From positions 696,353 to 728,352 of the forward strand of contig NZ_JAAIVF010000002.1 in assembly GCF_029589495.1 (NCBI RefSeq): a DNA stretch of 32,000 nucleotides. Direction: 5' to 3'. A program made the translations under genes and the position numbers. Numbering within the stretch: position 1 is the first letter of the stretch; every line of letters begins with the position of its first letter. Of the stretch, positions 738 through 24,353 are shown in pieces. Under the pieces are notes generated by a model, which searched no databases, was not told the DNA's origin, and saw only the letters and a list, made by a program, of their open reading frames with translations. Source of the DNA: Speluncibacter jeojiensis. GTDB taxonomy: Bacteria > Actinomycetota > Actinomycetes > Mycobacteriales > Mycobacteriaceae.

Positions 738-792
738 ACCCGATCACCACGCTCGAGACGTCCGAACCCTCGTGACCTACGAAAGGCACCCA

Positions 793-2940
793 ATGTTCGC
801 TCGACTGGCGCGCGTCGTCGTGCATCATCCCTGGCGGGTGATCGGCGTGTGGCTCATCGCCGCGATCGCCGTGATCGCCCTGGCCCCCAAACTGACCGCC
901 ACCACCGACGAGGCATCGTTTCTGCCGAGTCACTACGAGTCGATCCAGGCCATGAACCTGCAGGAGCAGGCCTTCCCGCACGCCGAGTCGCCCGCCGCGA
1001 TCGTGGTCGTCGAGCGCAGCGACGGCGCCCGGCTGACCCCGGCCGACACCGCGAAGGTAGGCGCGATCGCCGAATCTCTCGACGCCGCACACGTTCCGGC
1101 CGTCACCGCGGTGCAGGCCGGGCCGCCGTCGCCGAACGGGCTCATCCAGACCATCGGCATCCAGATGGTGAAGGTCGACAGTCCGACCGACAAGTCCCAG
1201 CAGGATGCGGTCAAGACGCTGCGCACGGATCTGCAGGATCAGTTGCGCGGCACCGACCTCAAGGCCGGCATCACCGGCTCGGCCGCGCAGGCGCTCGACC
1301 AGTCGTCGTCGGGCAACAAGGCGGAGGCGATCATCGCGATCGCCACCATCGTGCTGATCCTCGGCCTGCTGCTGATCATCTTCCGCAGCCCCGTCATCGC
1401 ATTGCTGCCGGTGATCGTGATCGGGGCGATCTCGCAGATCGCAACCGGCCTGATCGCCACCGTGAGCAAGCTGTTCGACCTGAAGATCGACAGCTCGGTC
1501 ACCTCGATGCTGATCGTCGTGCTGTTCGGCGTCGGCACCGACTACATCCTGTTCCTGATGTTCCGCTACCGCGAGCGGTTGCGGGACGGCGACGACCCGA
1601 AGACCGCGATGATCGCCTCGGTCACCCGGGTGGGCGAGGCGATCACCTCCGCGGCCGGCGCGGTGATCATCGCGTTCCTCGCGCTGACACTGTCGACGCT
1701 GGGGTTGTTCCGGGCGCTCGGCCCCGCGCTGGCGATCGCCGTCGCGGTGACCCTGCTGGCCGGACTCACGCTGATTCCCGCGGTGGTCTCACTGCTCGGT
1801 ACCAAGGTCTTCTGGCCGTCGAAGTCGTGGCGGCGCGAGCCGACCGGCGCCCGCTTCGCCGCGCTCGGATCGATCCTGGGCAAGCATCCGGGGCGGGTCG
1901 CGATCGCCTCCGGTGGGGTCATGGCGGTGCTGGCCATCGCTGCGTTCGGTTTCCAGCCGACCTTCGACCTGTCGGCGGGGTCGACGGCGTCCTCGGCCGA
2001 GTCGACCGTCTACGCCAAGGAACTGCTCAAGGGCCTGCCCGCCGGCGCGACCGAGCCGACCCAGGTGTTCCTGCGTTCGGACGACGGCGCACCGCTGTCC
2101 GAGGGCGACCTCGTGCGGTACCACGACACGCTGGCCGGGGTGTCCGGCGTCGGGCAGGTCACGCCGCCGCTGCTGTCCGAGCACAGGGACGTCGCGGAGT
2201 TCCGGGTGAGCCTGAGCGACTCGCCGGAGTCCAACGCGGCCATCGACACCGTCAGCGGCCCACTGCGCACCGCGGCGCACGACGCGGCGCCGTCCGGCAC
2301 GTCCGCGCTGGTCGGCGGCATCACCGCCGTCTACGCCGACATCCAGTCGGCGGTCAACCACGACTACACCGTCGTGTTCCCCGTCGCGGCCGTACTGATC
2401 ATGATCATCCTCGCGGTGATGCTCCGCAGCCTCGTCGCACCGTGGTACTTGATGGCCTCGGTCGGACTGGGCTTCGGTGCCACCCTCGGCGCGACCGTGC
2501 TGGTGTTCCAGCACATCCGCGGGGAACCCGGCCTGATCTTCATGCTGCCGGTGATCATGTACCTGTTCGTGGTCGCGCTCGGCACCGACTACAACATCCT
2601 GATGATCGCCCGGCTGCGCGAGGAGGCACGCGAGGGGCGCAATCCGCGCGACGCGGCGGCGATGGCGGTGCGACACGCAGGCCCGACGGTCGCCGCCGCC
2701 GGCGTGATCCTGGCCGGCACGTTCGCGTCGATGATGCTCGCGGGCAACACCACGCTCTCGCAGATGGGCTTCGCCATCTCGATCGGCATCGTGATCGCGG
2801 CGTTCGTGATGGCGCTGTTCTTCACGCCGGCGATCACCGCGTTGATCGGTCACGCCGCCTGGTGGCCCGGGCACCGTGACCGCTCGGACCCGGACGACGC
2901 ACCGGAGCAGGAGCGCACGGCGGTGCCGACCGGCTCGTAG
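793..2940 (+). CDS. MMPL-family (RND-type) membrane transporter, about 715 aa
   Basis: ATG at 793 follows GAAAGG; the track ORF from 568 is an unsupported N-terminal extension. There are two hydrophobic 6-TM blocks separated by soluble domains. The MMPL hallmark appears twice: GVGTDYILFLMFRYRE and ALGTDYNILMIARLREE. Confidence 0.85.
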   Translation: MFARLARVVVHHPWRVIGVWLIAAIAVIALAPKLTATTDEASFLPSHYESIQAMNLQEQAFPHAESPAAIVVVERSDGARLTPADTAKVGAIAESLDAAHVPAVTAVQAGPPSPNGLIQTIGIQMVKVDSPTDKSQQDAVKTLRTDLQDQLRGTDLKAGITGSAAQALDQSSSGNKAEAIIAIATIVLILGLLLIIFRSPVIALLPVIVIGAISQIATGLIATVSKLFDLKIDSSVTSMLIVVLFGVGTDYILFLMFRYRERLRDGDDPKTAMIASVTRVGEAITSAAGAVIIAFLALTLSTLGLFRALGPALAIAVAVTLLAGLTLIPAVVSLLGTKVFWPSKSWRREPTGARFAALGSILGKHPGRVAIASGGVMAVLAIAAFGFQPTFDLSAGSTASSAESTVYAKELLKGLPAGATEPTQVFLRSDDGAPLSEGDLVRYHDTLAGVSGVGQVTPPLLSEHRDVAEFRVSLSDSPESNAAIDTVSGPLRTAAHDAAPSGTSALVGGITAVYADIQSAVNHDYTVVFPVAAVLIMIILAVMLRSLVAPWYLMASVGLGFGATLGATVLVFQHIRGEPGLIFMLPVIMYLFVVALGTDYNILMIARLREEAREGRNPRDAAAMAVRHAGPTVAAAGVILAGTFASMMLAGNTTLSQMGFAISIGIVIAAFVMALFFTPAITALIGHAAWWPGHRDRSDPDDAPEQERTAVPTGS

Positions 2941-3560: not shown

Positions 3561-3896
3561 TCAAACCCGGACAGCTGTCCCACAATGCGTCCACATCGTG
3601 AGACTTCTACCCGCATTTCTGCAGGTCATCGCCGACTGACGGTCGCCGGGTGACCGTCTCGTGACCTTATCGTGATGTGATGATGCTCACCGGAAAATCG
3701 GACATTTCACCCGCATTTTCGGGTACTCGGAACGCGCCGCCGGGCGCTTTTCGCCTCTGCCCGAGACGAACTCGATCTTGTACACCCTCCGTGCACCGCC
3801 CCGTCCGCGCACCTGCGCCGAATCCGGTCGCGATTCCCCGTCGGCGACGGTCCCTCGCTCGTAAAATTGCCGGACGGCGGGAGAAAGGCGACGTCC

Positions 3897-5279
3897 ATGA
3901 CCGGTGACGCGTTCGACCTGCGGCAGCTGCTGGAGGCTCACCGCGACGACGGCTACGCGCTGCATGCGCAGTACATGAACCCCCAGCTCCCGCGCATGCT
4001 GCACGCCATCGGGTTCGACAAGACCTACGTGCGCGGGCAAGGCGCGTATCTCTACGACGCCCAGGGAACCGCCTACCTCGACATGCTGGCGGGCTTCGGC
4101 GTCTACGCCCTCGGCCGCCATCACCCGGTGGTCCGCCGCGCGCTGCACGACGTCCTCGACGCCGAGCTGTCCGACCTCACCCAGTTCGACTGCGCGCCAC
4201 TCCCCGGCCTGCTCGCACAGGCGCTGGCCGCCAAGACACCGCACCTGGACCGCGTCTACTTCGGCAACAGCGGCACCGAGGCGGTCGAGGCCGCGCTCAA
4301 GTTCGCCCGCCACGCCACCGGCCGACCACGAATCGTCTACTGCGATCACGCCTATCACGGCCTGACCGTCGGGTCACTGTCGATCAACGGCGCCGAGGAG
4401 TTCCGCGGCGGCTTCGGTCCGCTGTTGCCGGACACCGCGATCGCCTACGGCGACCTCGCCGCGCTCGAAGTCGAGCTGCGGCGCGGCGACGTCGCGGCGT
4501 TCGTCGTCGAACCGATACAGGGCAAGGGGGTCGCCGTTCCGCCAGCCGGATTCCTCAGGGCCGCAGGCGAGCTCGCCCACCGGCACGGCGCACTCCTGAT
4601 CGCGGACGAGGTGCAGACCGGGATCGGCCGCACCGGCGACTTCTTCGCCTATCTCGACGACGGCGCCGCACCCGACATCGTCACCGTGGCCAAGGCACTG
4701 TCCGGCGGCTACGTCCCGGTCGGCGCGATGATCTCCTCCACCGCGATCTTCGAGAAGGTGTACTCCTCGATGGACCGGGTCCTGGTGCACGACTCCACCT
4801 TCGGGTCCAACGCCCAGGCGATGGCCGCGGGCCTGGCCACCCTGCACGTGATGGAGAACGAGGCGGTCGTCGACAACGCGCGCAAGGTCGGCGACCAATT
4901 ACGTTCGCGGCTGGCCGAATTGGTGGACCGTTACGAGATGCTCGCGGACGTGCGCGGACGCGGGCTGATGATCGGCATCGAATTCGGCCGCCCCAGTTCA
5001 TGGAAGTTGCGCAGCAGTTGGACCGCGTTGCAGAGTGCCCGCCACGGATTGTTCGCGCAGACCATCGTGCATGCGCTGTTCCACCGTCACCGGGTCCTCA
5101 CCCAGGTCTCCGGCGACAACATGGAGGTCATCAAGCTGATCCCGCCGCTGACCATCGGCGAGGCGGAGGTCGACCGGTTCGTCGCCGCGTTCGTCGACGT
5201 CATGGAGGAGGCGCACCGCAGCACCGCGCTGATGCGCGACTTCGGCCGGACGCTGATCACCCAGGCGATGAAGCGGTAG
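3897..5279 (+). CDS. Class-III (acetylornithine/ornithine/GABA-type) PLP-dependent aminotransferase, 460 aa
   Basis: ATG at 3897 is preceded by GGGAGAAAGG (3879-3888); the track start at 3867 is a TTG without an RBS. Motifs seen: GNSGTEAVEAALKFAR, ADEVQTGIGRTG, and the PLP-lysine region DIVTVAKALSGGYVPVGA. Confidence 0.85.
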   Translation: MTGDAFDLRQLLEAHRDDGYALHAQYMNPQLPRMLHAIGFDKTYVRGQGAYLYDAQGTAYLDMLAGFGVYALGRHHPVVRRALHDVLDAELSDLTQFDCAPLPGLLAQALAAKTPHLDRVYFGNSGTEAVEAALKFARHATGRPRIVYCDHAYHGLTVGSLSINGAEEFRGGFGPLLPDTAIAYGDLAALEVELRRGDVAAFVVEPIQGKGVAVPPAGFLRAAGELAHRHGALLIADEVQTGIGRTGDFFAYLDDGAAPDIVTVAKALSGGYVPVGAMISSTAIFEKVYSSMDRVLVHDSTFGSNAQAMAAGLATLHVMENEAVVDNARKVGDQLRSRLAELVDRYEMLADVRGRGLMIGIEFGRPSSWKLRSSWTALQSARHGLFAQTIVHALFHRHRVLTQVSGDNMEVIKLIPPLTIGEAEVDRFVAAFVDVMEEAHRSTALMRDFGRTLITQAMKR

Positions 5280-7389: not shown

Positions 7390-7923
7390 TCAGCGGGCGA
7401 CGGCCGCGTCGCCGGACGTTTCCAGCCGCGACAGCTGCCAAGCGATCGACACCGCCCAGGTGTCCACCCTCGCGACGGTGCCGTCTTCGACCCGGCGGCC
7501 GTGGGACATCGCGGCGAGCAGCCGTTCGCGTCGGTACGCACGCGGCGCGTCGAGCCGTCCGGTGAAGACCCGGTGATCGCGCGCACCGATCATGTCGCGG
7601 ATCCGTTCGCCGTCCGCGCACCTGCTTGCGGGCGTGGGGATGTCGTCGCCGGAGCCGCAGGAGAACAGCCACGTCGGGACGGTGTCCAGGGTGTCGGCGT
7701 TTGCGGCGACGAAGGTCCGCGCCGAGCGCGTCCACCTGCCCATGTAGACGGCGCTGCCGAGGATCACCGCGTCGTATCCGTCCAGGCCGTGCACCTCGTC
7801 GAGCCTGCGGACGTCGACGGTGGCCCGCGTACCGGACAGTTGCACGCGGAGCGCGGCGCCGAGCCGCTCGGCGATCTCGGACGACGAACCGTATCGTGCT
7901 GCAGCCGTTACGAGAATCCTCAT
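7390..7923 (-). CDS. Flavodoxin-like fold protein (HemG/flavodoxin-domain family), about 177 aa
   Basis: MRILVTAAARYGSSSEIAERLG... followed by YDAVILGSAVYMGRW is typical of long flavodoxin-domain proteins. ATG at 7923 lies 7 nt after GAGGAGG; GTG codons at 7929 and 7926 are alternative starts. Confidence 0.75.
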   Translation of the reverse strand: MRILVTAAARYGSSSEIAERLGAALRVQLSGTRATVDVRRLDEVHGLDGYDAVILGSAVYMGRWTRSARTFVAANADTLDTVPTWLFSCGSGDDIPTPASRCADGERIRDMIGARDHRVFTGRLDAPRAYRRERLLAAMSHGRRVEDGTVARVDTWAVSIAWQLSRLETSGDAAVAR

Positions 7924-7988
7924 CACCACGCCTCCTCGAAAGCCGTCCTGCTAACCTCCGAGAGTGGTCCCCACCGCGCGGTCGGGGT

Positions 7989-8004
7989 AGGGCCTTTCGG
8001 CCCC
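7989..8004 (-). terminator. Small GNRA-loop hairpin just downstream of dosS
   Basis: On the minus-strand RNA: GGGGCC-GAAA-GGCCCU, i.e. 5 GC pairs plus a G-U, located 13 nt after the dosS stop. There is no U tract, so the function (terminator or processing site) is uncertain. Confidence 0.25.
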
Positions 8005-8016
8005 TGATCCTGCAGA

Positions 8017-9771
<1,755 letters not shown>

Positions 9772-9803: not shown

Positions 9804-12611
<2,808 letters not shown>

Positions 12612-12614
12612 CCG

Positions 12615-12633
12615 GACCTCTGGGACAGGGGTC
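12615..12633 (+). terminator. Hairpin immediately after acn
   Basis: GACCUCUG-GGA-CAGGGGUC forms 8 bp including one G-U, followed by UUCC. It starts 4 nt after the acn stop. Confidence 0.4.
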
Positions 12634-12677
12634 TTCCGCCCCTACCGCGGCGCGCGTGGCGGGGTGATTCTCGAAGC

Positions 12678-13655
12678 ATGACCACCGCACTCGCACCCCG
12701 CGAAGAACTCATCTGCACCTCCGTCGAATGGGCCTGCCGCGCCCCGTCGCTGCACAACAGTCAGCCGTGGCGGTTCGTCTACGACAGCGCCGGCCTGCAC
12801 CTGTACGTCGACGAGCGCCGCCTGCTCGACACGACCGATCCGACCGGGCGGCAGGCGATCATCAGTTGCGGTGCGGCACTGCACCATCTGCGGATCGCCT
12901 TGCCGCACTTCGGCTTGGCACCGACGGTGCGACGCTTCCCCGACCCGGCGGATCCGTCGTTGCTGGCCGACATCACGTTCGATCGCGTCGAGGACCTCGA
13001 TCCCCGCGACGCCGCACTGTTCCTCGCAATCGAACACCGCCGCACCGACCGCCGCCCGTTCCGCCGGCCCAGCGAGGTCGCGCTGCACGACCTCGATCGC
13101 GCCGCGCGGCGGCACGGCGCCACCATGACCCTGCTCGGCCCCGAGGCACGCGACGAGCTGGCCCGTGCCTCGCGGACCAGCGCCGCACTTCACCGGTACG
13201 ACCCCGCCTACCGGGCCGAACTGCTGTGGTGGAGCGGGCACAGCCGGGACGACGGGATCCCCCGCAACCTGCTGCCCGCGGCGGTCGACGGCCCTCCCGC
13301 CGTCGAGATCGCCCGCACCTTCCCTGCCGGCACCCTCGAGGCGGACGGTGACGAAGACCAGGCCGCACTGGGGGTGCTCAGCACCTGCACGGACACGCCG
13401 CGGGACTGGCTGCACGTCGGCGAAGCACTGTCGTCGGTGCTGCTCGAGGCCACCGTCCTGCACCTCGCCACCTGCCCACTCACCCATGTGACCGAAGTCC
13501 CGGCCAGCCGCGAGATCGTGCGGGCCACGACCGCGGTGGCCGGGTCGCCCTGCCGGTACCCGCAGGTGGCCATCCGGTTCGGCGGTCCTCGGCACCCGCC
13601 GCTGGTCGGGCAGACCGCCCGGCGGTCGGTCGAGGACGTGTACCGGGTGCGGTGA
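12678..13655 (+). CDS. acg: Acg-family FMN-binding (nitroreductase-fold) oxidoreductase, 325 aa
   Basis: N-terminal motif RAPSLHNSQPWRF and the two-lobed nitroreductase-like length and layout match the Acg/Rv2032, Rv3127 and Rv3131 family, which belongs to the DosR regulon in mycobacteria. There is no obvious SD, so the transcript may be leaderless. Confidence 0.8.
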   Translation: MTTALAPREELICTSVEWACRAPSLHNSQPWRFVYDSAGLHLYVDERRLLDTTDPTGRQAIISCGAALHHLRIALPHFGLAPTVRRFPDPADPSLLADITFDRVEDLDPRDAALFLAIEHRRTDRRPFRRPSEVALHDLDRAARRHGATMTLLGPEARDELARASRTSAALHRYDPAYRAELLWWSGHSRDDGIPRNLLPAAVDGPPAVEIARTFPAGTLEADGDEDQAALGVLSTCTDTPRDWLHVGEALSSVLLEATVLHLATCPLTHVTEVPASREIVRATTAVAGSPCRYPQVAIRFGGPRHPPLVGQTARRSVEDVYRVR

Positions 13656-13677: not shown

Positions 13678-14661
13678 TCAGCTCTCGTCGTGCTTCTCCC
13701 AGAAGCGCGCCCGGAGGCGGTAGCGGATCCCTTCGTCCAGGTCGTACACCTGCAGCGCGTCGGAGGCGTCGATCAGCAGGGCGCGGTCGATGTCGGAGGG
13801 GATCGACGGCCGCGCGCTCTGGAGCTGCTGCTGCTCCTCGGACGACGCGCTCGTCCGGATCGACGACAGCACCCGCATCACGACCTCGTCGAGCAACCGA
13901 TCCTGTTCCTCCTGCTCCTGGTACTCGGGCAGCAGGTGCGCCGGAGAGCCGGTCGACGAGCTGTACGCCAGCACGCTCGTCGGAGGCGGTGCTGTCGGAC
14001 AGTGCGCGGCCGCGGCGGCGAGGTCGCGCGGGGTCGGGCGCACGGCGGCCGCGGCCGTCGGCAGAGGCGGCTCAGGCGCCTGCACCGGTGCGGCCGGCTC
14101 GCGCACCGGCGGGTGCTCGACCTTGATCACCGCACCGTCGACGGCCGCGCCGTCGACCGTGTCGATCTCGTCGGCCGCCCGGATCAGGTACCGGCTCACG
14201 CCGTGCGGCCTGCCGTCGGCGTTGGGCACCGCGAGCAGCACGACCTGCACCCCGTGCACCTGTGCCTCTTCGACCGCCTCGGTCAGGTCGTCGTCGCCGG
14301 AGACCAGGAAAAACACGTCGGACGCGCTGTTGCGGGCGTGCGCGACGAGGTCGAGCCCGATGCGCAGGTCGACGCCCTTCTGTTTGCCGTCGACGCCGAA
14401 CCGGCCGAGCCGCAGCTTGACCTTGGGGATCTCGCCGATCCGCTCCTGCTGCGCGTCGGGTACCCCGTTCTTCGCCGAGTCGTACCAGTGCACCCGCAGC
14501 ACCGGCAGGCCCGACCGCGCCTCGGCCGCGTCGACCAACGAGCTGATCAGCTTCGCGTACTCGGGATGGATCCCGCTGCGCAGCGAGGTGCCGGTGACGC
14601 GGGTCGCGGCGGACGCGAGCAGGTATCCGACATCGATGTACAGGGAGCAGGTCGACCGCAT
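13678..14661 (-). CDS. NYN (LabA-like PIN-fold) domain protein with Pro/Ala-rich linker and acidic C-terminal domain, 327 aa
   Basis: The N-terminal roughly 170 aa carry NYN/LabA features: LYIDVGYLL, KGVDLRIGLDLV, VFFLVSGDDDLTEAVEEAQ. A low-complexity PA-rich linker follows (about residues 175-235), then a C-terminal module of about 90 aa that I do not recognise. Confidence 0.8.
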   Translation of the reverse strand: MRSTCSLYIDVGYLLASAATRVTGTSLRSGIHPEYAKLISSLVDAAEARSGLPVLRVHWYDSAKNGVPDAQQERIGEIPKVKLRLGRFGVDGKQKGVDLRIGLDLVAHARNSASDVFFLVSGDDDLTEAVEEAQVHGVQVVLLAVPNADGRPHGVSRYLIRAADEIDTVDGAAVDGAVIKVEHPPVREPAAPVQAPEPPLPTAAAAVRPTPRDLAAAAAHCPTAPPPTSVLAYSSSTGSPAHLLPEYQEQEEQDRLLDEVVMRVLSSIRTSASSEEQQQLQSARPSIPSDIDRALLIDASDALQVYDLDEGIRYRLRARFWEKHDES

Positions 14662-14743: not shown

Positions 14744-15379
14744 TCAGTGCCGCCGCCCGAGCCGTGTCGCCATCACCGCCGCCTGGGTTCGGCGCTCCAC
14801 CCCGAGCTTCGCCAGCAGTCGCGACACGTAGTTCTTGACGGTCTTCTCCGCCAGGTGCATCCGCCCGGCGATCTGCCGGTTGGTCAGTCCCTCACCGAGC
14901 AGGTCGAGCAGCCGCTGCTCCTGCGGGCTCAGTTTCGCCAGCGCTCCGCGCTGCTCGTGCTCGCCACGCACCTCCGCCATGAGCGCGGCCGTCGCGCGCT
15001 CGTCGAGCAGCGACCCGCCCGCCCCGACCTCGCGGATCGCCTTCGTCAGGTCGAGTCCGCGAATGTCCTTGATCACGTATCCGGCCGCGCCGGCGAGGAT
15101 CGCGTCGACCATGGCCTGCTCATCGGTGTACGACGTGAGGATCAGGCACTGCAATTGCGGCATGCGCGAGCGCAGTTCGCGGCACAGTTCCACCCCGCTG
15201 CCGTCGGGCAGCCGCACGTCGAGGACCGCGACATCCGGCCGCAACGCCGGGATCCGCGCCAGCGCATGCGAACAGTTGCCGGCCTCGCCGACCACCGTCA
15301 GCTCCTCGTCGGCCTCGATCAGGTCGGTCAGCCCCCGCCGCACCACCTCGTGATCGTCGACCAGAAAGACGGTGTACAC
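14744..15379 (-). CDS. dosR: DosR/DevR-type NarL-family response regulator, 211 aa
   Basis: GTG start at 15379. The sequence is near-collinear with my recollection of M. tuberculosis DevR: [30 protein letters not shown] (phospho-Asp), [46 protein letters not shown]. Confidence 0.9.
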
Positions 15380-15385
15380 CCGCCG

Positions 15386-16396
15386 CTAACTGCTTCGGGC
15401 GGCGCGGATGGTCTCCTTGAGCGAACCCAGCGTCGCCAGCACCGAGGTTGGCTCGTACCCGCAGTGCGCCATGCAGTTGGCGCAGCGCGGATCGCGGCCG
15501 CGACCGTACTTCTCCCAGTCGGTGGTCTCGATCAGCTCTTTGTAGGTCTTCACGTAGCCGTCGGCCATCAGGTAGCACGGCTTCTGCCAGCCCAACAGCG
15601 AGTACGACGGCACTCCCCATGCGGTGCAGTCGAAGTCGACCTTGCCTTCGAGAAAGTCGAGGAACAGCGGAGAATGGTTCAGGCGCCACTTCTTGCGCCG
15701 GCCGTCGGCGAACGTCTTGCGGAACAGCTCGCGCGTCTCCTGCACGCCGAGGAAGTGCTCCTGGTCGGGCGCCTTCTCGTAGGCGTACGCCGGCGAGACC
15801 ATCATCTGGTCGACCTGCAGGTCATCGTTGAGGAAGTCCAGCACGTCGATGACCGACTGCGGGGTGTCGGTGTTGAACACCGTCGTGTTGGTGGTGACCC
15901 GGAAGCCGCGGCTCTTCAGCTCGCGCACCGCCTCGACCACCTCGTCGAACACGCCCTCCTTGCAGACGGACGCGTCGTGCCGCTCCTGCAGACCGTCCAC
16001 GTGCACGGCGAACGCGAAGTAGCGGGACGGCTTGAAGTCGAAGCGCTCCAGCCGTTTCCGCAGCAACACCCCGTTGGTGCACAGGAAGACGAACTTCTTG
16101 CGCTTGACCAACTCGGCGACGATCTTGTCGATCTCCGGGTGCATCAGCGGCTCGCCGCCGGCGATGGACACCATCGGCGCGCCGGACTCCTCGATCGCGG
16201 CCACGGCCTGCTCCACGGGCATCCGCTGTTTGAGCAGATGGGCCGGCTGCTGGATCTTGCCGCAGCCCGCGCATGCGAGGTTGCACGCGAACAGCGGTTC
16301 CAATTCGACGATCAGCGGAAACTTCTTGTTGCCCCGAACCTTCTGCTCGAGCAGGTACCGAGCGATCCTCATGCTTTGGTACAACGGCATACTCAT
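15386..16396 (-). CDS. hpnH: Adenosyl-hopene transferase HpnH (radical SAM), 336 aa
   Basis: Radical-SAM cluster motif FACNLACAGCGKI is present. The rest of the sequence matches the HpnH family along its length (VSIAGGEPLMHPEI, FLCTNGVLL, CTAWGVPSYSLLGWQKPCYLM, RCANCMAHCGYEP). The ATG at 16396 overlaps the upstream stop; ATG at 16390 is an alternative start. Confidence 0.92.
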   Translation of the reverse strand: MSMPLYQSMRIARYLLEQKVRGNKKFPLIVELEPLFACNLACAGCGKIQQPAHLLKQRMPVEQAVAAIEESGAPMVSIAGGEPLMHPEIDKIVAELVKRKKFVFLCTNGVLLRKRLERFDFKPSRYFAFAVHVDGLQERHDASVCKEGVFDEVVEAVRELKSRGFRVTTNTTVFNTDTPQSVIDVLDFLNDDLQVDQMMVSPAYAYEKAPDQEHFLGVQETRELFRKTFADGRRKKWRLNHSPLFLDFLEGKVDFDCTAWGVPSYSLLGWQKPCYLMADGYVKTYKELIETTDWEKYGRGRDPRCANCMAHCGYEPTSVLATLGSLKETIRAARSS

Positions 16397-17907
16397 TGCT
16401 GACGAACCTCCTTCGGCAATGTGAAATTGATTTTCTCCGTGGTTGTTTCGTGTGTGTCGATCCGTATCCTCCCCAGTGCCCCGAGGGCCGCGACGATCTC
16501 GTCGACCACCTCCGCGGGCGCGGAGGCGCCGGCGGAGATCCCGATCGTGCGGGCGCGCGCGAGCCAGTCCAGCGAGACCTGTCCGGCGTCGTCGACGAGG
16601 TGCGCCTCGGTGCCCTCACGCTGCGCGACCTCCACCAGCCGCCGCGAGTTCGACGAGTTCTCCGATCCGGCGACGAGCACCAGGTCCGACTGCCGAGCCA
16701 CCGCCCGCACGGCGCGCTGGCGGTTGGTGGTGGCGTAGCAGATGTCGTCGGAATCCGGCCCGCGCAGACTCGGAAAGCGTTCGCGCAGAACGTTTACCAC
16801 ATCGGCTGCCTCGTCCGCGGCCAAGGTGGTCTGCATCAGGTAGGCGACCCGTTCCGGGTCGCGTACCTGCACCCGCTCGGCGTCGTGCACGCTCTGCACG
16901 AGCACCGTGTCGGCGGGTTCCTCACCGAGGGTGCCCTCGACCTCCTCGTGCCCGGCGTGGCCGATCAGCAACACCGTGTGACCGTCCCGTACGAACCGCT
17001 TCGCCTCGGTGTGCACCTTCGCCACCAGCGGGCAGGTGGCGTCGACGACGTCCAGCCCGCGCAGCGCCGCATCGGCGCGCACCGCGGGCGCCACCCCGTG
17101 CGCGGAGAAGACGACCGTGGCACCGTCGGGCACCTCGGCGAGCTCGTCGACGAACACCGCTCCCCTGCCCTCGAGCCCGTGCACCACCCGCGAGTTGTGC
17201 ACGATCTGCTTGCGTACGTACACCGGCGCCTGCCGGGTCTGCAGCAGGCTGTCGACGATCCGGATCGCACGCTCGACCCCGGCGCAGAACGAGCGCGGCG
17301 AGGCCATCACCAACCGGCGGTCCCCGGTCGCGGCTGCCCACCGGCTCAGCACCGTCCCGACGGTACGCAGCGTACGCAGCGCGGTCAGCCCGCCGGACAC
17401 CGTCGACGGGGACCACAGGGGACGGTCCGGGGTGTCGGAGACGACGCGCAGCACCGCCGTCGGCGCCCCGTCGGCCAGTTGCAGCAGCACTCCGGACTCC
17501 ATGTCGACCGCGATCGACCCGTCCGCGGCCAGCGCGGCGTGTTCGCCGCGCCCGACCATGTGCCCGCTCTGCCGGATCGGACCCAGGTGCGCCGTCAGCC
17601 CGGCCTCGCGCAGCGCGGTGACCAGCAGCGGCGCGGCCGCCAGCCGATGCGTGCCCGCGGACGCGCGGACCTCGTCGGCGACCACCACCTCCCCGACGCC
17701 GATGCCGTCGACGAGCGCGCCGGCGACGCCGGTGATCGCCAGTGCCGCAGGGCTGTTCGCGATCAGTGCCGACCGGACCCGATCACCCCGGCGGGCGCGA
17801 ACCCCGGCCCGCACCAGCGTCGCACCGGCCAGTCCCGGCCGCGTCGCAGCGGCCTCGACACCCGTCGCGGTGGCGACCACGAGGGAGCGCGGGCCGGCGG
17901 TCGTCAT
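16393..17907 (-). CDS. ispH: Apparent fusion protein: N-terminal HpnG-like nucleosidase/phosphorylase domain + C-terminal IspH (HMBPP reductase), 504 aa
   Basis: Residues 1-195 look like a PNP/MTA-nucleosidase fold (ITGVAGAL, IAVDMESG). Residues from about 200 are a full-length IspH with all three Fe-S cysteines (SFCAGVERAI, DATCPLVAKVH, DDICYATTNRQ) and SENSSNSRRL. A single frame runs from the ATG at 17907 without a stop. Confidence 0.85.
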   Translation of the reverse strand: MTTAGPRSLVVATATGVEAAATRPGLAGATLVRAGVRARRGDRVRSALIANSPAALAITGVAGALVDGIGVGEVVVADEVRASAGTHRLAAAPLLVTALREAGLTAHLGPIRQSGHMVGRGEHAALAADGSIAVDMESGVLLQLADGAPTAVLRVVSDTPDRPLWSPSTVSGGLTALRTLRTVGTVLSRWAAATGDRRLVMASPRSFCAGVERAIRIVDSLLQTRQAPVYVRKQIVHNSRVVHGLEGRGAVFVDELAEVPDGATVVFSAHGVAPAVRADAALRGLDVVDATCPLVAKVHTEAKRFVRDGHTVLLIGHAGHEEVEGTLGEEPADTVLVQSVHDAERVQVRDPERVAYLMQTTLAADEAADVVNVLRERFPSLRGPDSDDICYATTNRQRAVRAVARQSDLVLVAGSENSSNSRRLVEVAQREGTEAHLVDDAGQVSLDWLARARTIGISAGASAPAEVVDEIVAALGALGRIRIDTHETTTEKINFTLPKEVRQQ

Positions 17908-19811
17908 CGGTCACCGACGGAGAGGAACCTGCCCAGCGCGCTGAGCGGGAAGACCAGGCGGTACAGGTGGTAGTTGATGTAGAAGTCGCCGGGGAAGCCG
18001 GTGCCGGTGAACAGGGACTCGTCCCAGCCGCCGTCCTCACGTTGGGTGCGCAGCAGCCAGCCGACGCCGGCCTGCACGACCACTCCGCGCTCCCCCGCTG
18101 CCAACAGGGCCAGCAATGCCCACGCGGTCTGCGACGCGGTCGACTCGCCGCGGCCGATCCAGCTCCGATCGGTGTACGAGCGCAGGTCCTCGCCCCAACC
18201 GCCGTCCTCGTTCTGATGCTGCTCGAGCCAGCGCACCGCCCGCCGGATCGCGGGGTGGGTGGTCGGCACGTCGGCGTCGACGAGCGCCGGCACCACCGCG
18301 CCGGTCCCGTACACGTGGTTCGCGCCCCACCGCCCGAACCAGGATCCGTCCTGCTCCTGATTGTCGAGCAGCCACTGCACGCCGCGCCGGGTGACCGCGG
18401 CGTCGGCGTCGTCGCCGGCCGCGAGCATCTCGACGATGTGGCCGGTCACGTCCGCCGAGGGCGGGTCGATCACCGCGCCGAAGTCGCAGAACGGCAACTT
18501 CTCGCAGAGCGTGCGGGTGTTGTCGGCGTCGAAGGCGCCCCAGCCCCCGTCGCGGCACTGCATGCCCTCGATCCAGGCGGTGGCGCGGGCGACCGCGGAG
18601 TCGATGCGTGCGGGGTCGGGGTGGCGCAGCCGGCGCAGGGCCAGCACCACCTCGGCAGTGTCGTCGGTGTCCGCGTAGTTGACGTTGGCGAACTCGAACG
18701 CCCAACCGGACGGCGCGAGGTCGGGCCGGCGCACCGACCAGTCGCCCTTGACGCTGATCTCCTGGTCCAGCAGCCAGTTCCCGGCCCGGATCAGTGCCGG
18801 GTCGTCGTCGGGTGTGCCGGCGTCCAGCAGTGCGGTCAGCGCGAGCCCGGTGTCCCACACCGGCGACTGGCACGCCTCCAGACGGCGTACCCAGCCGTGC
18901 GGGGTCTGTTCCCGGATGGTGAAGTCGTCCAGTCCGGCCATCGCCTTGTTCTGGACCGGGTGATCCATGTCGTACCCGCGCAGATACAGCGCGATGATCG
19001 AGTACACCCACGGCGGCTGGATGCCGCCCCAACCGCCGTCCGCCTCCTGCCGGGCCAGGATCCACTTCTCGGCCCGCCGCAGCGACAGCCGGCGCAGCGG
19101 CGTCCTCGGGATCTTCTCGAGCAGGTGCAGCACCTTGTCCAACCGCTGGAAGGCGCCCGCCCAGCTGCGCCACGACGCCAGCGGCGGTTCCGGTGTGCCG
19201 GTGCGCAGTTCACGCACGCTCACGCCGAGGTCGCGGCGCGGCTGCATCGTCCACACCACGGTCAGCGGGACCACGGTCTGGCGCGCCCAGCAGGCCCAGT
19301 CGTAGATGTTGAGCGGGAACCACTTCGGCAGCAGCGCGATCTCCGGCGGCAGCACCGGCAGTCGGTCCCAGGACCATTCCCCGAACAGCGCCAGCCAGAT
19401 CCGGGTGAACACCCGGGTGGCCTCGATGCCGCCGTGCGCCAGCACGTACTCGCGGGCCCGGGCCATGTGCGCCGCGTCCGGGTCGTCGCCGACCATCTTG
19501 AGCACCGTGTAGGCCTCGACGGTGGTGGACAGGTCCGCCGGACCGCCACGGAAGTTCGCCCAGGTGCCGTCCTGCCGCTGCTGCGACCGGATCCACCGGG
19601 CCGACTCCTCGCTGCGCTGCGCGTCCCGGATGCCGAGGAACTGCCGCAGCATCAGATCCTCGGCGTCCATCGTCACGTTGGTCTCGAGTTCGCCCTTCCA
19701 CCACCCCTCGGGGTGCTGCAGCCCGAGCAGATGGGTCCGGGCCCGTTCGGTGGCCTCGCGGACCGCGTCGCCGAAGACGACATCGTCGGTGATCTCGCGC
19801 AGTTCGGTCAT
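17904..19811 (-). CDS. shc: Squalene-hopene cyclase, 635 aa
   Basis: Catalytic DxDDTA motif (ADTDDTAEV) is present. Multiple QW repeats are visible (QEADGGWGGIQPPW, QCRDGGWGAFD, QEQDGSWFGRWG, NEDGGWGED, REDGGWDES). Confidence 0.95.
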   Translation of the reverse strand: MTELREITDDVVFGDAVREATERARTHLLGLQHPEGWWKGELETNVTMDAEDLMLRQFLGIRDAQRSEESARWIRSQQRQDGTWANFRGGPADLSTTVEAYTVLKMVGDDPDAAHMARAREYVLAHGGIEATRVFTRIWLALFGEWSWDRLPVLPPEIALLPKWFPLNIYDWACWARQTVVPLTVVWTMQPRRDLGVSVRELRTGTPEPPLASWRSWAGAFQRLDKVLHLLEKIPRTPLRRLSLRRAEKWILARQEADGGWGGIQPPWVYSIIALYLRGYDMDHPVQNKAMAGLDDFTIREQTPHGWVRRLEACQSPVWDTGLALTALLDAGTPDDDPALIRAGNWLLDQEISVKGDWSVRRPDLAPSGWAFEFANVNYADTDDTAEVVLALRRLRHPDPARIDSAVARATAWIEGMQCRDGGWGAFDADNTRTLCEKLPFCDFGAVIDPPSADVTGHIVEMLAAGDDADAAVTRRGVQWLLDNQEQDGSWFGRWGANHVYGTGAVVPALVDADVPTTHPAIRRAVRWLEQHQNEDGGWGEDLRSYTDRSWIGRGESTASQTAWALLALLAAGERGVVVQAGVGWLLRTQREDGGWDESLFTGTGFPGDFYINYHLYRLVFPLSALGRFLSVGDR

Positions 19812-20815
19812 AGGTCACGCTCCGTCATGAAAGCCGCCAATTCACGTAGGGACAGATCTATTTCCGTTGGCGCACCGACGTGTTCGAGGCAGCCCTGCGC
19901 CTGCAGCACCTGCGCACGCGCCTCACGTCGGGTCCACTCCAGCGCGCCGGACTCCGCCACCAGTCGCGCCATCTCGCGCAGCTGCGCCTCGTCGCTCGGC
20001 TCCGGTTCCGCATAGAGCAGGGCGAGTTCGGCGCCCTCCCGGGTCTGCGAGTTCAGTGCGGCGACCACTGGCACCGACTTCTTGCGGCTGCGCAGGTCCG
20101 AGAGCACCGGCTTGCCGGTGACCGCCGGCGCGCCCCAGATGCCCAGCAGGTCGTCGACCAGTTGGAAGGCCAGCCCGAGGTGCGCACCGAACGCGCGCAG
20201 CGCGGCCACCTGCTCGGGGGTCCCGCCGCCGAGCACCGCGCCGATCTCGGTGGCGCAGCGCATCAGCGCCCCAGTCTTGCCGGCCGCCATCTCCAGGCAC
20301 TGCGCCAGGTCGACCGCACCGCACTCCTCGAACTCGATGTCCTCGGCCTGGCCGACGATCAGTTCCTGCACGGCATCGGTCAGGCACCGCACGGCGGCCG
20401 GGTCGGCGGCCGGCCCGAGCACCTCGACCGCCAGCGTCAGCATCGCATCGCCGGCCAGGATCGCCGCCGGCACGCCGTACAGCTTCCACACGGTCGGCCG
20501 GTGCCTGCGCTCCTCGTCGCCGTCCATCACGTCGTCGTGGACGAGCGAGAAGTTGTGCACCAGTTCGACGGCCAGCGCACCGGGCAGCGCCACGTCCGCG
20601 TCGGCCCCGACCGCACGGGCGGACAGCAACGCCAGGGTCGGCCGCAGCGCCTTGCCGCCGCCGTCGGAGGCCGGGTGGCCCAGCTCGTCGGTCCAGCCGA
20701 GGTGGTAGCCGACGATCCGCCGCATGGACGGGTGCAGTTCGGCGACAGCCTTGCGCAGTGCGGGCTGAACCAGGGCCTGGGCCGCACCGACCGGCGCGGG
20801 CAGTGTGGTCGTCAT
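19808..20815 (-). CDS. Polyprenyl (farnesyl/geranylgeranyl) diphosphate synthase, 335 aa
   Basis: The internal ATG at 20815 overlaps the hpnE stop. First and second Asp-rich motifs are present: LVHDDVMDGD and FQLVDDLLG. The 625-aa track ORF is an out-of-gene extension through hpnE. Confidence 0.9.
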   Translation of the reverse strand: MTTTLPAPVGAAQALVQPALRKAVAELHPSMRRIVGYHLGWTDELGHPASDGGGKALRPTLALLSARAVGADADVALPGALAVELVHNFSLVHDDVMDGDEERRHRPTVWKLYGVPAAILAGDAMLTLAVEVLGPAADPAAVRCLTDAVQELIVGQAEDIEFEECGAVDLAQCLEMAAGKTGALMRCATEIGAVLGGGTPEQVAALRAFGAHLGLAFQLVDDLLGIWGAPAVTGKPVLSDLRSRKKSVPVVAALNSQTREGAELALLYAEPEPSDEAQLREMARLVAESGALEWTRREARAQVLQAQGCLEHVGAPTEIDLSLRELAAFMTERDL

Positions 20816-22185
20816 GAGGTGATGCCTCCTGCGGGATGAGTCGAGGCCGGGGTGGCGTCCTGCGCTGAGATGTCGGAGAAGACCAGGTCGGCGGCTCGGT
20901 GCCCGCTGCGCACCGCGCCCTCCATCGTGTCCGGCCAGCCGGTGGCGGTCCACGCGCCCGCCAGCGCGAGACCGGGCAGCGGGGTCTGCGCGTCGGGCCG
21001 CAACCCCGCGGTACCCGGCGCCTGACGGAAGGTGCCGCGGCGCTCGCGGGTGACGAAGAAGTGCTCGAGTTCGGCGTCGGCCGCCCCCGGCAGCAGCCGG
21101 ACCAGCTCGCGCTCGAAGATCCCGCGCAGTTCCGGCGCGGGCGTGCCGATCCACCGGTCCGCGGCGGACAGCGAGATGGTCAGGTACTGGCCGCCCTCGT
21201 ACCCGGCGGTCTCGGTGCGGTCGAAGAACCACTGCACCGGTGAGTCGAGCACCGCCGCGAACGGGAGGTCGGTGACCTTGCGCCGAAACGCCATGTGCAC
21301 GTTCATGATCGGGTTCTTGCCGAGCCGCTCCAGCTCGTCCGGGCGCAGTCCGGTCTGCGCGGGGCAGATCCGCGCCGCCGGTTCCGGCGGGGTCGCGACC
21401 ACGACGCCGTCGGCGTGCAGGTCCGCGCCGTCGAGCCGCACGACATAGCCGCGGTCCAACGGTTCGATGTGCCGCACCGCGTTGTGCGTGAGGATCCGGC
21501 CGCCGCGCGCCCGCAGATACCGCGCGGCCGGACGCACGTGCAGTTCGTCGAGCGAGACGACGGGCACGCCGATGTCCGCGGCGTCGCTGCGGTCGAGCAG
21601 CGCGGTGCGGAACACCATGACCGCCGAGGCCAGCGACGCCTCGTCCGCGTCCGTGTTGAGCGCGGCGACCGAGATCAGGTTCCACAGAGCGTCCGAGGTC
21701 GCCTGGGTCTGGCCGTGCTCGCGCAGCCAGTCGCCGAAGGTGCGGCCGTCCAGTTCCGGATCGTCGGGGGAGAGCCGGCGCAGCGCGGTCGCCGCGCGCA
21801 GCACGCGGGCGCGGTCGGCCATGCTCAGCGCACGGTAGCGGGCCAGCCCCAGCCCGAGGTGCAGCGGCGCGGGGCCGCCGGTGCGGGTCAGCGTGGTCCT
21901 GGTGCCGTCCGGCAGCAGCACCGGCATCCGGAAGCGGTTCTGCATGGCGATGCCGTCGCTCGATCCGATCCTGTCCAGCAACGCCAGATAGTCACTGTAG
22001 CAACGCATCACGACGTGCTGGCCGTTGTCGACGGTCAGCCCGTCGCGGTGAAACGAGAAGGTGGCGCCGCCGAGCCGGCCGCGCGCCTCCACCAGCGTCA
22101 CCCGCACGCCGCAGTCGGCCAGGTCGCAGGCCGCGGTCAGGCCCGCGAGCCCGCCGCCGATCACCACGACCACCTTGCCGTTCAT
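20812..22185 (-). CDS. hpnE: Hydroxysqualene dehydroxylase HpnE (FAD-dependent amine-oxidase fold), 457 aa
   Basis: The start MNGKVVVIGGGLAGLTAA carries the GxGxxG dinucleotide-binding motif, and its ATG at 22185 overlaps the hpnD stop. The gene sits between hpnD and the prenyl synthase as in known hpnCDE clusters. Confidence 0.87.
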   Translation of the reverse strand: MNGKVVVVIGGGLAGLTAACDLADCGVRVTLVEARGRLGGATFSFHRDGLTVDNGQHVVMRCYSDYLALLDRIGSSDGIAMQNRFRMPVLLPDGTRTTLTRTGGPAPLHLGLGLARYRALSMADRARVLRAATALRRLSPDDPELDGRTFGDWLREHGQTQATSDALWNLISVAALNTDADEASLASAVMVFRTALLDRSDAADIGVPVVSLDELHVRPAARYLRARGGRILTHNAVRHIEPLDRGYVVRLDGADLHADGVVVATPPEPAARICPAQTGLRPDELERLGKNPIMNVHMAFRRKVTDLPFAAVLDSPVQWFFDRTETAGYEGGQYLTISLSAADRWIGTPAPELRGIFERELVRLLPGAADAELEHFFVTRERRGTFRQAPGTAGLRPDAQTPLPGLALAGAWTATGWPDTMEGAVRSGHRAADLVFSDISAQDATPASTHPAGGITS

Positions 22186-23063
22186 CGCATCGCTCCCGCC
22201 AATGCGCCGACCGCCACCGCGACCTTCTCGCGGTCGGGCAGGCTGGTCCGTTCGGTCAGGATGGTGTGCGGCCGAATCGCCATGTGGCGCAACAACCGGT
22301 GATAGATGCCCGCCATCGCAGCACAGCACGCGCGGCTGCGGCCGTCCAGTTGCGGCAGCAGCCGCAGGCCGACCGTGTACCACTCCTCGGCGCGGGCGGC
22401 CTGGTACTCGAACAGCGCCAGCAGCCGCTCCGGCGGGTCGGACAGGTTGCCCCGATCGTCCAGATCGAGGGTGCAGCCGAACTGGGCGAGTTCGTCGGCC
22501 GGCAGGTAGATCCTGCCGTCCCGCCGGTCCTCGAGCACGTCCCGCAGGATGTTGGTCAGCTGCAGCGCGACACCCAGCGCGTCGGCGAGATCGCTGTCGC
22601 CGTCGGGGTCGTGGCTGCCGAACACGGCCAACGACAGGCGCCCGATCGACCCCGCCACACACCGGCAGTAGTGGTGCAGTTCCGCGAACGATCGGTACTG
22701 CGTGCCCAGCACATCGGCCCGGCACCCCTCGATCAGTTCGTCGAAGGCGCCCAGCGGCAGGCCCTGCGTGCGGGCCGCGTCGGCCAGTGCGGTGAGCACC
22801 GGATCCTCGGGGTGCTCGTCGAGCGCGCGCAGTTGCTGCTGGGCCAGCTCGAGGTCCACCAGCTTCTGCGGGGCGGGCAGGTCGCCGTCGCCGATGTCGT
22901 CGATGCGCCGCGCGAAGGCGTACACAGCGCTCAGGGCGGCGCGTTTGGGCGGCGGCAGCAGCCGGATTCCGTACGAGAAGTTCTTCGCCTCCGCCGCGGT
23001 GATCTGCCGACAGCGCTCATAGGCCTCCTCGACGTTGCTCGTCGTGCTCGTCGCGGCACTCAT
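22182..23063 (-). CDS. hpnD: Presqualene diphosphate synthase HpnD (squalene/phytoene synthase family), 293 aa
   Basis: SQS/PSY motifs are present: YAFARRIDDIGD and NILRDVLEDRRDGRIYLPADEL. The ATG at 23063 overlaps the hpnC stop. Confidence 0.87.
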   Translation of the reverse strand: MSAATSTTSNVEEAYERCRQITAAEAKNFSYGIRLLPPPKRAALSAVYAFARRIDDIGDGDLPAPQKLVDLELAQQQLRALDEHPEDPVLTALADAARTQGLPLGAFDELIEGCRADVLGTQYRSFAELHHYCRCVAGSIGRLSLAVFGSHDPDGDSDLADALGVALQLTNILRDVLEDRRDGRIYLPADELAQFGCTLDLDDRGNLSDPPERLLALFEYQAARAEEWYTVGLRLLPQLDGRSRACCAAMAGIYHRLLRHMAIRPHTILTERTSLPDREKVAVAVGALAGAMR

Positions 23064-23956
23064 CGCCTCCCCCTCCACAGACCCAGCGCCAGCGTCGCGG
23101 TGCGGCGCCTGCCCGGCCTGGGATCGCGTCCCAACACGTCGAATTCCGCGGCGGCGAGGGCCTCGGCGGTCGCCAGGCCGCCCGCGACATAGCCGGCGAC
23201 GGCGACCTTGGCGAAGCCCTGCAGCGATGCGACCAGCGCGGTGCCCTCGTCCAGCAGGCGGACCGCGCGCTGCACCTCGAACCCGACCAGCGCCCGCACG
23301 CCGCGGGTCGCGGCCGGCGCGAGCAGGTCCGCCTCGTCGACGCGGAAGCGCATCAGGTCCTCGGTGGGCAGGTAGATCCGCCCGGCCGTCGCGTCCTCGC
23401 CGACGTCCTGCGCGTGTTCGAGCAGCTGCAACGCCGTGCACACCCGGTCGGAGAGTGCGATCCGCGCGGGGGTCGCGGCGCCGAAGATGCCGAGTACCAG
23501 CTCGCCGACCGGATCGGCGGACAGTGCGCAGTAGGAACGCAGGTTCGCGTACGTCGCGTATCGGGTGACCACCTGGTCCTGACGGTTCGCCTGGATCAGC
23601 CGGTCGAAGGGCCCGCGGGGCAGATCGCACTCGCGGATCGTGGCGGAGAGCTCACGGTAGGGCGACTCGGGGGTCAGCCGCCCGGAGTAGATGCGGTCGA
23701 GCTGGTGGGCGGCCTGGTCGAGCAGGGCCATGCGGTTGCCGGGCGCCTCGTCGCCGATGTCGTCGACGGTGCGCGCGAACCCGTACAGCGCGGTCAGGTG
23801 GCGCCGGTGTGCGCGCGGGAGCAGAACCGACGCGACGGGGAAGTTCTCGTTGCGCGCCTTGATCCGCAGCCCCTCATCACCGGGCTGCTCGCGCGGCGAC
23901 GGGGACCGGTCGGCGTCCCGCGCCACGAAAATCGATCGACCAGTTGTGCCGGCCAA
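23060..23956 (-). CDS. hpnC: Hydroxysqualene/squalene synthase HpnC (squalene/phytoene synthase family), about 298 aa
   Basis: Motifs: ENFPVAS, YGFARTVDDIGDE, and HAQDVGEDATAGRIYLPTEDL. I prefer the TTG at 23956, which follows GGAGGAGGGG (23968-23959). The track start is a TTG at 24010 without an RBS, so the start is uncertain. Confidence 0.8.
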   Translation of the reverse strand: MAGTTGRSIFVARDADRSPSPREQPGDEGLRIKARNENFPVASVLLPRAHRRHLTALYGFARTVDDIGDEAPGNRMALLDQAAHQLDRIYSGRLTPESPYRELSATIRECDLPRGPFDRLIQANRQDQVVTRYATYANLRSYCALSADPVGELVLGIFGAATPARIALSDRVCTALQLLEHAQDVGEDATAGRIYLPTEDLMRFRVDEADLLAPAATRGVRALVGFEVQRAVRLLDEGTALVASLQGFAKVAVAGYVAGGLATAEALAAAEFDVLGRDPRPGRRRTATLALGLWRGRR

Positions 23957-24353
23957 TACCCCTCCTCCGGCTGTGGTGTCGGGTGCTGGTGCTGATGTTG
24001 CACTTCTCAACCGCTCGGGATGGCAGGTACGACGTTACGTCGCCCCGCTGGGCGTGTTGTCGGAATCGAGAACATCGCAAGCGGTCCGAAATTGCATGAT
24101 CGAGATGGGCTGTCGTCCAGTTACACACCGGCCGTGGCCATTTCAACCGGCCGACCGTTTACGCCGAAACCCAGGTCATCGCCTATACGAGAATCGAAAA
24201 GCGCGGCGACATAACACTATTGATACCGTGAGTCACATATTGCCGGATATTCGCGACGTATTGGCTTGCTGTCCAACAGAACCGTCTCACGTCGAACACC
24301 GGTGACCATGTTCGTGCATGGTCATTTGCGGGTAACGCGCGGACAATACGTTC

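Follow-up and report, generated by a model that had tools for sequence, protein, structure and literature searches.

What places the gene of a dormancy regulator at the end of an operon for membrane lipids? In Speluncibacter jeojiensis, the sole member of the family Speluncibacteraceae within the order Mycobacteriales, a gene of the DevR/DosR type (dosR) begins six nucleotides (nt) after hpnH, the last gene of a hopanoid operon. We analyzed this junction in a 32,000-nt stretch of the genome of strain D2-41, referred to as the window in the following (contig NZ_JAAIVF010000002.1, positions 696,353 to 728,352 of the forward strand). An earlier note on this DNA had taken the layout to suggest a regulatory link between hopanoid membrane remodelling and the dormancy response to hypoxia, nitric oxide (NO) and carbon monoxide (CO). 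In our analysis, the junction looks like the scar of a rearrangement that rewired the supply of DosR, and not like an evolved and conserved regulatory design.

The anatomy of the junction is simple. Both genes lie on the minus strand: hpnH (16396..15386) encodes 336 amino acids (aa), starts with ATG and stops with TAG at 15388-15386, and dosR (15379..14744) encodes 211 aa, starts with GTG at 15379-15377 and stops with TGA. These positions and the 6-nt gap are those given by the earlier note, and the spacer is, as it had argued, too small to accommodate an intergenic promoter. The two open reading frames (ORFs) are in one reading frame, with the junction reading TAG CGG CGG GTG, and since the hpnH TAG shuts the dosR frame two codons upstream, this GTG is the sole usable start of dosR. 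It also agrees with the N-terminus of Mycobacterium tuberculosis DevR, to which the regulator is colinear from residue 2. Read-through of the TAG codon (15377-15388, minus strand) would yield a 549-aa HpnH-DosR fusion; a shared frame arises by accident in one of three cases, and there is no sign that it is used. A second strain, D3-21 (locus L001), whose sequence is 99.63% identical to that of the window strain at the nt level over 21 kb, shares every base of the junction. As the two strains were assembled independently, in contigs of 791 kb and 344 kb, this identity excludes an assembly artefact.

The gene downstream of hpnH encodes a PF00072 receiver domain (E=8e-26) and a PF00196 LuxR/GerE helix-turn-helix domain (E=5e-17). 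Its product aligns colinearly with M. tuberculosis DevR (3c3w; E=1e-91, 309 bits, residues 2-209 to 2-209), the next match in the PDB being VraR at E=8e-37, and these features mark it as a clear DevR/DosR orthologue and NarL-family response regulator. Asp8, Asp9, Asp54, Thr82, Lys104, Lys179, Lys182 and Asn183 are all found at their DevR positions, and the two proteins have an identical recognition helix. We take Asp54 to be the phospho-acceptor, acting with Asp8/Asp9, Thr82 and Lys104, and Lys179, Lys182 and Asn183 to contact the DNA. For Asp54, this role in DevR is given in PMC3029386. In comparison with the sister lineage described below, the ratio of non-synonymous to synonymous substitution rates (dN/dS) of dosR is 0.079 at a dS of 0.46, within the range of 0.009-0.137 seen for neighboring genes. 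By this measure, dosR is under purifying selection and clearly maintained, and it must therefore be expressed somehow.

The pairing of the two genes is not shared by relatives. A scan of species-representative genomes for HpnH yielded 80 loci with 73-82% identity, from Pseudonocardiaceae, Streptosporangiaceae, Micromonosporaceae, Streptomyces and many metagenome-assembled genomes, and a DosR-like gene follows hpnH at none of these 80 actinobacterial loci; at those inspected, the next gene is a convergent short-chain dehydrogenase, an aminotransferase or unrelated genes. Likewise, a scan of metagenome contigs for the regulator yielded 80 dosR-like loci (62-74% identity; flanks of up to 6 kb, with many contigs being shorter), and hpnH, shc or ispH was found within the fetched flanks of none of them. 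The usual neighbors of these metagenomic dosR-like genes are a DosS/DosT-like kinase gene and acg-like genes. The hpnH-dosR pair was thus seen only in the two S. jeojiensis strains; neither the sister lineage nor any of the 160 other hpnH or dosR-like loci shows it. In a more distant relative (L171; HpnH 87% identity), hpnH ends the operon and faces a convergent aminotransferase gene, so that three related lineages have three different genes after hpnH, with dosR found there in S. jeojiensis alone. The earlier note had proposed this synteny comparison and had named uniqueness to the strain as an outcome that would speak against its own suggestion; with the adjacency confined to one species (two strains), the result comes close to it.

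Two observations from these scans concern the wider surroundings of hpnH. The class-III aminotransferase gene that adjoins hpnH in the distant relative (L171:3177-4562) has a counterpart in the window (3867-5279, plus strand; 81% nt identity), which lies 10 kb away from hpnH. In S. jeojiensis, the two are separated by a block of ~10 kb that reaches from dosR to an alcohol dehydrogenase gene, and this block may have been inserted into an older hopanoid-aminotransferase neighborhood. Separately, a 468-aa HpnH-like protein (P0126, from L168, ENA contig k141_712400, 1.8 kb) scored above the self-match and was considered as an HpnH-DosR fusion; this was rejected, as the protein is an HpnH with a duplicated central segment and probably an assembly chimera.

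The closest relative of S. jeojiensis, the sister lineage, is seen in short metagenomic contigs only, and these allow both breakpoints to be placed to the base. Six of them (L082-L087) encode a regulator that is 92% identical to the window DosR at the aa level, followed by a gene with an NYN domain (99-100% aa and ~88% nt identity). Here, a slipin/SPFH gene, of which the contigs show the 3' end, comes before dosR, and the spacer of ~60-80 nt between the two holds GGGCCGAAAGTCC, a sequence similar to the Dev box, and GGGAGG seven bases before the same GTG. The nt homology between the sister dosR and the window starts exactly at the G of this GTG, at position 15379. The same sequencing runs yielded two further contigs (L169 and L170) with shc, hpnG-ispH and hpnH, HpnH being 99% identical at the aa level and ~90% at the nt level. 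These contigs are homologous to the window as far as 15388, where the hpnH stop begins. In the sister, hpnH is followed by a spacer of 200-220 nt and then by a qNOR nitric-oxide reductase gene (cytochrome c-like domain PF22085, E=5e-26). The stretch of the junction that is non-homologous to the sister therefore comprises the spacer and the last two bases of the stop codon only. The sister spacer after hpnH (L169:3497-3714, L170:1317-1519) contains a 15-nt tandem repeat (GTTGATGCCGGAG-like) in three copies in one sample and two in another; S. jeojiensis has neither this repeat nor a qNOR gene directly after hpnH.

Dev boxes, palindromes with GGGACT half-sites, are located 5' of the genes of the DevR regulon and of the operon of the regulator itself. 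We scored Dev-box-like sites against a weighted 20-mer consensus with a maximum of 18 and a site threshold of >=13.5; as consensus matches only, all of them are candidate sites. Such a site lies <=250 nt upstream of the gene in 45% of 71 metagenomic dosR-like loci, as opposed to 6% of background windows. No Dev-box-like site is found in the last ~400 nt of hpnH before dosR (best score 10.5), nor in the 397-nt region upstream of hpnC, the first gene of the hopanoid operon (best score 11.5 of 18). The Shine-Dalgarno sequence is likewise nearly gone: in the 20 nt before the start codon, the energy of the duplex with the anti-Shine-Dalgarno sequence is -4.4 kcal/mol for dosR in S. jeojiensis, compared to -12.5 kcal/mol for the sister dosR and -13.7 kcal/mol for hpnH. 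The near absence of a Shine-Dalgarno sequence fits a translation of dosR that is coupled to that of hpnH, and such coupling is reported to work best between genes that are very close together (PMC12548453).

Scans for further signals at the junction gave null results. The terminator scan remained at the level of chance: its one hit (15384-15368) is a stem of 5 bp, as frequent as chance would have it, and the predicted fold of the junction RNA is no more stable than that of shuffled sequence (z=0.1). A scan with the sigma-70 consensus gave no promoter match, also in the region upstream of hpnC. Viewed as a candidate operon, hpnH and dosR thus share a strand, a 6-nt spacer and a terminator signal at chance level, but their pairing is not conserved across relatives. 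The earlier note had left the choice between read-through from the hopanoid operon and a promoter inside hpnH. These are the right alternatives, and read-through is the better supported one, because no terminator is seen beyond chance, the Shine-Dalgarno sequence of dosR is near-absent and the sole hexamer resembling a -10 element in this part of hpnH is shared with the sister lineage.

We therefore lean, with moderate confidence, towards a rearrangement that would have fused dosR-NYN to the hopanoid operon and removed the dosR promoter and ribosome-binding site, turning dosR into a read-through passenger with coupled translation. A deletion or rearrangement in S. jeojiensis would have joined the 3' end of the hopanoid operon to the dosR start codon, at the loss of the dosR 5' region with the Dev-box-like, presumably autoregulatory site and the strong Shine-Dalgarno sequence that the sister has kept. 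In consequence, dosR, and probably also the NYN gene, would be transcribed mainly by read-through from the promoter upstream of hpnC, and ribosomes that end translation at the hpnH TAG would resume it at the GTG six bases on. The supply of DosR would then be tied to transcription of the hopanoid operon and no longer to positive autoregulation. Its activity, by contrast, would still be set by phosphorylation from a DosS/DosT-like haem kinase encoded 5 kb away, and its targets would still be the nearby genes with Dev-box-like sites (the kinase, flavodoxin-like and acg genes) and not the hopanoid genes. We assign the event to the S. jeojiensis line because one breakpoint falls on a stop codon and the other on a start codon and because the sister keeps the full dosR 5' region; an insertion in the sister appears less likely, since it would need to have brought along a Dev box and a ribosome-binding site and put both in the exact position. 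Searches for traces of the event itself gave nothing: neither the content of guanine and cytosine (GC) nor its skew sets the hopanoid cluster or the dosR block apart as a compositional island, and the window contains no tRNA, Rfam family, insertion-sequence-like element or flanking repeats that could account for the rearrangement.

Several points weigh against this reading. The co-transcription of hpnH and dosR is deduced from their spacing alone, and the polarity of the change from parsimony and a single sister lineage represented by short contigs. A simple deletion of everything from qNOR through slipin is a hypothesis, as contiguity of the hpnH-qNOR and slipin-dosR segments was not found in the sister, where a search for homologs of the 68-aa slipin fragment gave only short fragments of other organisms. 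Eight bases of the junction (AGCGGCGG) match neither of the sister flanks. Finally, one hexamer of the form TANNNT (TACGGT), the sole one in the last 400 nt of hpnH, is located 123 nt 5' of the GTG, and as mycobacterial promoters need little beyond a -10 element of this form, an internal promoter is possible.

In the strongest of the alternatives, a promoter of this kind, located in the 3' part of hpnH, would drive dosR independently of the hopanoid operon, and nothing about regulation could be read from the tight spacing. Actinobacterial promoters may sit in upstream ORFs and need only a weak -10 element, and the purifying selection on dosR implies some expression. However, TACGGT codes for a conserved Tyr-Gly, and the sister lineage, whose dosR is not located behind it, has the hexamer as well; it is therefore not a feature of the junction. 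The lack of a sigma-70-like promoter match and of a Dev box in this part of hpnH also speaks against the idea, as does the near-absent Shine-Dalgarno sequence, with which an independent transcript would be poorly translated unless ribosomes arrived from hpnH. We consider an internal promoter unlikely, if a serious contender.

The adjacency might also be an adaptive design, in which hopanoid synthesis and the DosR response are co-regulated, for instance through a hypoxia- or NO-responsive hopanoid promoter that brings about membrane rigidification and dormancy together. Both ORFs are preserved to the base and the junction is fixed in both strains, yet such preservation is equally expected if only viable rearrangements survive. 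The surroundings of dosR are rich in dormancy and NO-related genes, and there are precedents to which this idea can appeal. Frankia vesicle envelopes are one example. For Bradyrhizobium diazoefficiens, hopanoid production is reported to be needed for optimal symbiotic fitness (PMC4620461). On the other hand, the adjacency occurs in one species and is absent from the sister and 160 other loci, no Dev-box-like site is found 5' of the hopanoid operon, and the literature searched, in which no paper deals with both hopanoids and DosR, offers no link between the two. Design of this kind is, in our judgement, markedly improbable. The weakest alternative, that dosR is crippled and heading towards a pseudogene, or that the junction is artefactual, is barely credible: dosR has lost its native promoter, Dev box and Shine-Dalgarno sequence and encodes the least conserved of the DosR, NYN and HpnH proteins relative to the sister (92% versus 99% aa identity), but we rejected pseudogenization on account of its low dN/dS, intact ORF and complete set of key residues, and an artefact is at odds with the same junction in two independently assembled strains.

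The suggestion from which we started, a regulatory link between hopanoid remodelling and dormancy, is thus unsupported as a general one, because the layout is species-specific, no sign of DosR control over the hopanoid genes, such as a Dev box 5' of the operon, was seen, and the literature searched contains no such link. In this last respect, the earlier note, which knew of no description of a link, still stands.

The features around the junction are compiled in the following table.

Features of the hopanoid operon, the junction and the dormancy-type neighborhood (window coordinates, listed in the direction of the operon;., no strand assigned)
Feature	Coordinates	Strand	Remarks
Non-coding region 5' of hopanoid operon	23957..24353	-	Presumed operon promoter; divergent from NIPA-like transporter gene; 397 nt, lower GC (0.65)
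hpnC (squalene synthase), first operon gene	23060..23956	-	TIGR03464 283 bits, cut-off 250; start from L001 annotation
hpnD (presqualene diphosphate synthase)	22182..23063	-	TIGR03465 272 bits, slightly below cut-off 278.6; ATGA overlap with hpnC
hpnE-like amine-oxidase/flavin adenine dinucleotide (FAD) oxidoreductase	20812..22185	-	PF01593 E=5e-54; ATGA overlap
Polyprenyl diphosphate synthase	19808..20815	-	PF00348 E=1e-58; ATGA overlap
shc, squalene-hopene cyclase	17904..19811	-	PF13243 E=1e-141, PF13249 E=1e-126
Fused hpnG-like phosphorylase + IspH (LytB), 504 aa	16393..17907	-	IspH models 299-426 bits; HpnG TIGR03468 57 bits, residues 11-164
hpnH, adenosyl-hopene transferase (radical S-adenosylmethionine), last hopanoid gene	15386..16396	-	TIGR03470 equivalog 526 bits, cut-off 225
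Spacer between hpnH stop and dosR start	15380..15385	-	6 nt, CGGCGG on coding strand
NYN-domain gene (predicted RNase)	13678..14661	-	PF01936; 82 nt 3' of dosR
acg-family flavin mononucleotide (FMN) oxidoreductase	12678..13655	+	NF047509 300 bits, cut-off 199; Dev-box-like site 12619-12645 upstream
Aconitate hydratase	9804..12611	+	PF00330, PF00694; divergent from kinase gene
Dev-box-like sites between kinase and aconitase genes	9672-9691, 9732-9751	.	Two of the top three consensus matches in the 32-kb window
DosS/DosT-like GAF-GAF-HisKA_3 sensor kinase	8017..9639	-	GAF-A matches DosT 2vzw E=7e-55; Pfam domains
Dev-box-like site GGGGCCGAAAGGCCC 5' of flavodoxin_5 gene (7929..7390)	7987..8006	.	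Score 13.5

The hopanoid operon has the order hpnC-hpnD-hpnE-polyprenyl synthase-shc-hpnG/ispH-hpnH, with each gene overlapping the next by ATGA, and the count of seven genes in the earlier note is correct. HpnH has a PF04055 domain and a C-terminal PF11946 domain (DUF3463), with the CxxxCxxC motif appearing as CNLACAGC in the translation. Only the IspH half (325 aa) of the fused 504-aa hpnG-ispH ORF has been annotated in the public record from which L001 derives. The sister contigs encode the same fusion (504 and 505 aa), and so do at least 40 of the 80 actinobacterial hpnH loci, the Streptomyces loci not being among them. At the other end of the window, an MMPL-family transporter (568-2940, plus strand) resembles the hopanoid transporter HpnN only weakly (103 bits, cut-off 752) and is probably a common MmpL protein with no part in the hopanoid system.

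Judged by its genes, the window also holds a small dormancy-type cluster, which adjoins the hopanoid operon. Along the direction of the operon, dosR is followed by the NYN gene, acg and aconitase, the latter two on the opposite strand, and then by the kinase and a flavodoxin-like gene. The NYN gene follows dosR at a distance of 82 nt in both S. jeojiensis and the sister lineage, is very highly conserved (dN/dS 0.009) and occupies the position that the kinase gene has at most dosR loci. The acg-family gene we take to be a typical member of the DosR regulon. The kinase, whose GAF-A domain also matches DevS (2w3d; E≈5e-51 to 6e-50) and whose ATP-binding domain matches 3zxq/3zxo, is the presumed partner of DosR. 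As the earlier note had it, this is the sole DosS/DosT-like kinase of the window, 5.1 kb from dosR and beyond the NYN, acg and aconitase genes.

The three best Dev-box consensus matches of the 32-kb window (7987-8006, 9672-9691 and 9732-9751) all flank the kinase gene, and the core of the site on the flavodoxin side is almost the same as that of the site upstream of the sister dosR. More broadly, Dev-box-like sites cluster in the intergenic regions around the kinase, flavodoxin_5, aconitase and acg genes. This intergenic enrichment emerged only with the weighted 20-mer score; a plain search for GGGAC-N4-GTCCC with two mismatches gave fewer matches in the window than in shuffled sequence. Two of these sites lie between the aconitase and kinase genes, which diverge from each other, and this arrangement suggests that aconitase may belong to the local DosR regulon. 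With candidate sites near the kinase, flavodoxin-like and acg genes and none at dosR, the local DosR regulon therefore looks intact, while dosR itself is without a box.

Our analysis thus describes what is probably a species-specific rewiring, in which the supply of DosR moved from autoregulation to a lipid operon. DosR circuits are textbook cases of positive autoregulation. In S. jeojiensis, a natural rearrangement appears to have removed this loop and put the regulator under a lipid operon, with the gene still under purifying selection. If true, this would be a natural experiment on the weight of DosR autoregulation and on how operon fusions rewire signaling, with the sister lineage, which keeps the standard layout, as a comparison partner. 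That control by the membrane-lipid operon has taken the place of DosR autoregulation to the point where the capacity for dormancy is set by how strongly hopanoids are made, we regard as decidedly doubtful; if it were so, and if the hopanoid promoter were responsive to O2 or NO, this would be a first case of an actinomycete in which hopanoid remodelling is coupled, directly and genetically, to the response to hypoxia, NO and CO. The reach of these findings is limited to one little-studied cave species and does not establish a general connection between hopanoids and dormancy.

How does this arrangement compare to known systems? In M. tuberculosis, devRS is transcribed as the downstream part of an operon from the autoregulated, Dev-box-bearing promoter of Rv3134c (PMC3177182). 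As in this Rv3134c-devR-devS operon, dosR of S. jeojiensis appears to be located downstream in an operon, with the inferred promoter ahead of another gene, and its neighborhood includes a haem GAF kinase of the DosS/DosT type as well as a nitroreductase of the acg family, with Dev-box-like sites. Unlike in M. tuberculosis, the operon partner is a seven-gene hopanoid operon and not a universal stress protein gene, and the kinase gene is separate, 5 kb off, with NYN following dosR in its stead. Since no Dev boxes are found before the hopanoid operon, positive autoregulation of the M. tuberculosis type appears to be missing here. Compared with other actinobacterial hopanoid clusters (hpnCDE-shc-hpnG-hpnH, as in Streptomyces and Pseudonocardiaceae), the S. 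jeojiensis operon has the same gene content and order, its HpnH is 73-82% identical to those of Pseudonocardiaceae, Streptosporangiaceae and Streptomyces, and its hpnG-ispH fusion is common to many actinobacteria other than Streptomyces; in contrast to them, a response regulator follows hpnH, which is the case in 0 of the 80 others. Lastly, hpnH and dosR resemble pairs that are translated by termination and reinitiation: they share a strand, lie 6 nt apart, and the Shine-Dalgarno sequence before the downstream start is weak or absent. As a candidate coupled pair, they would stand out in that the partners are functionally unrelated and would have been joined only recently.

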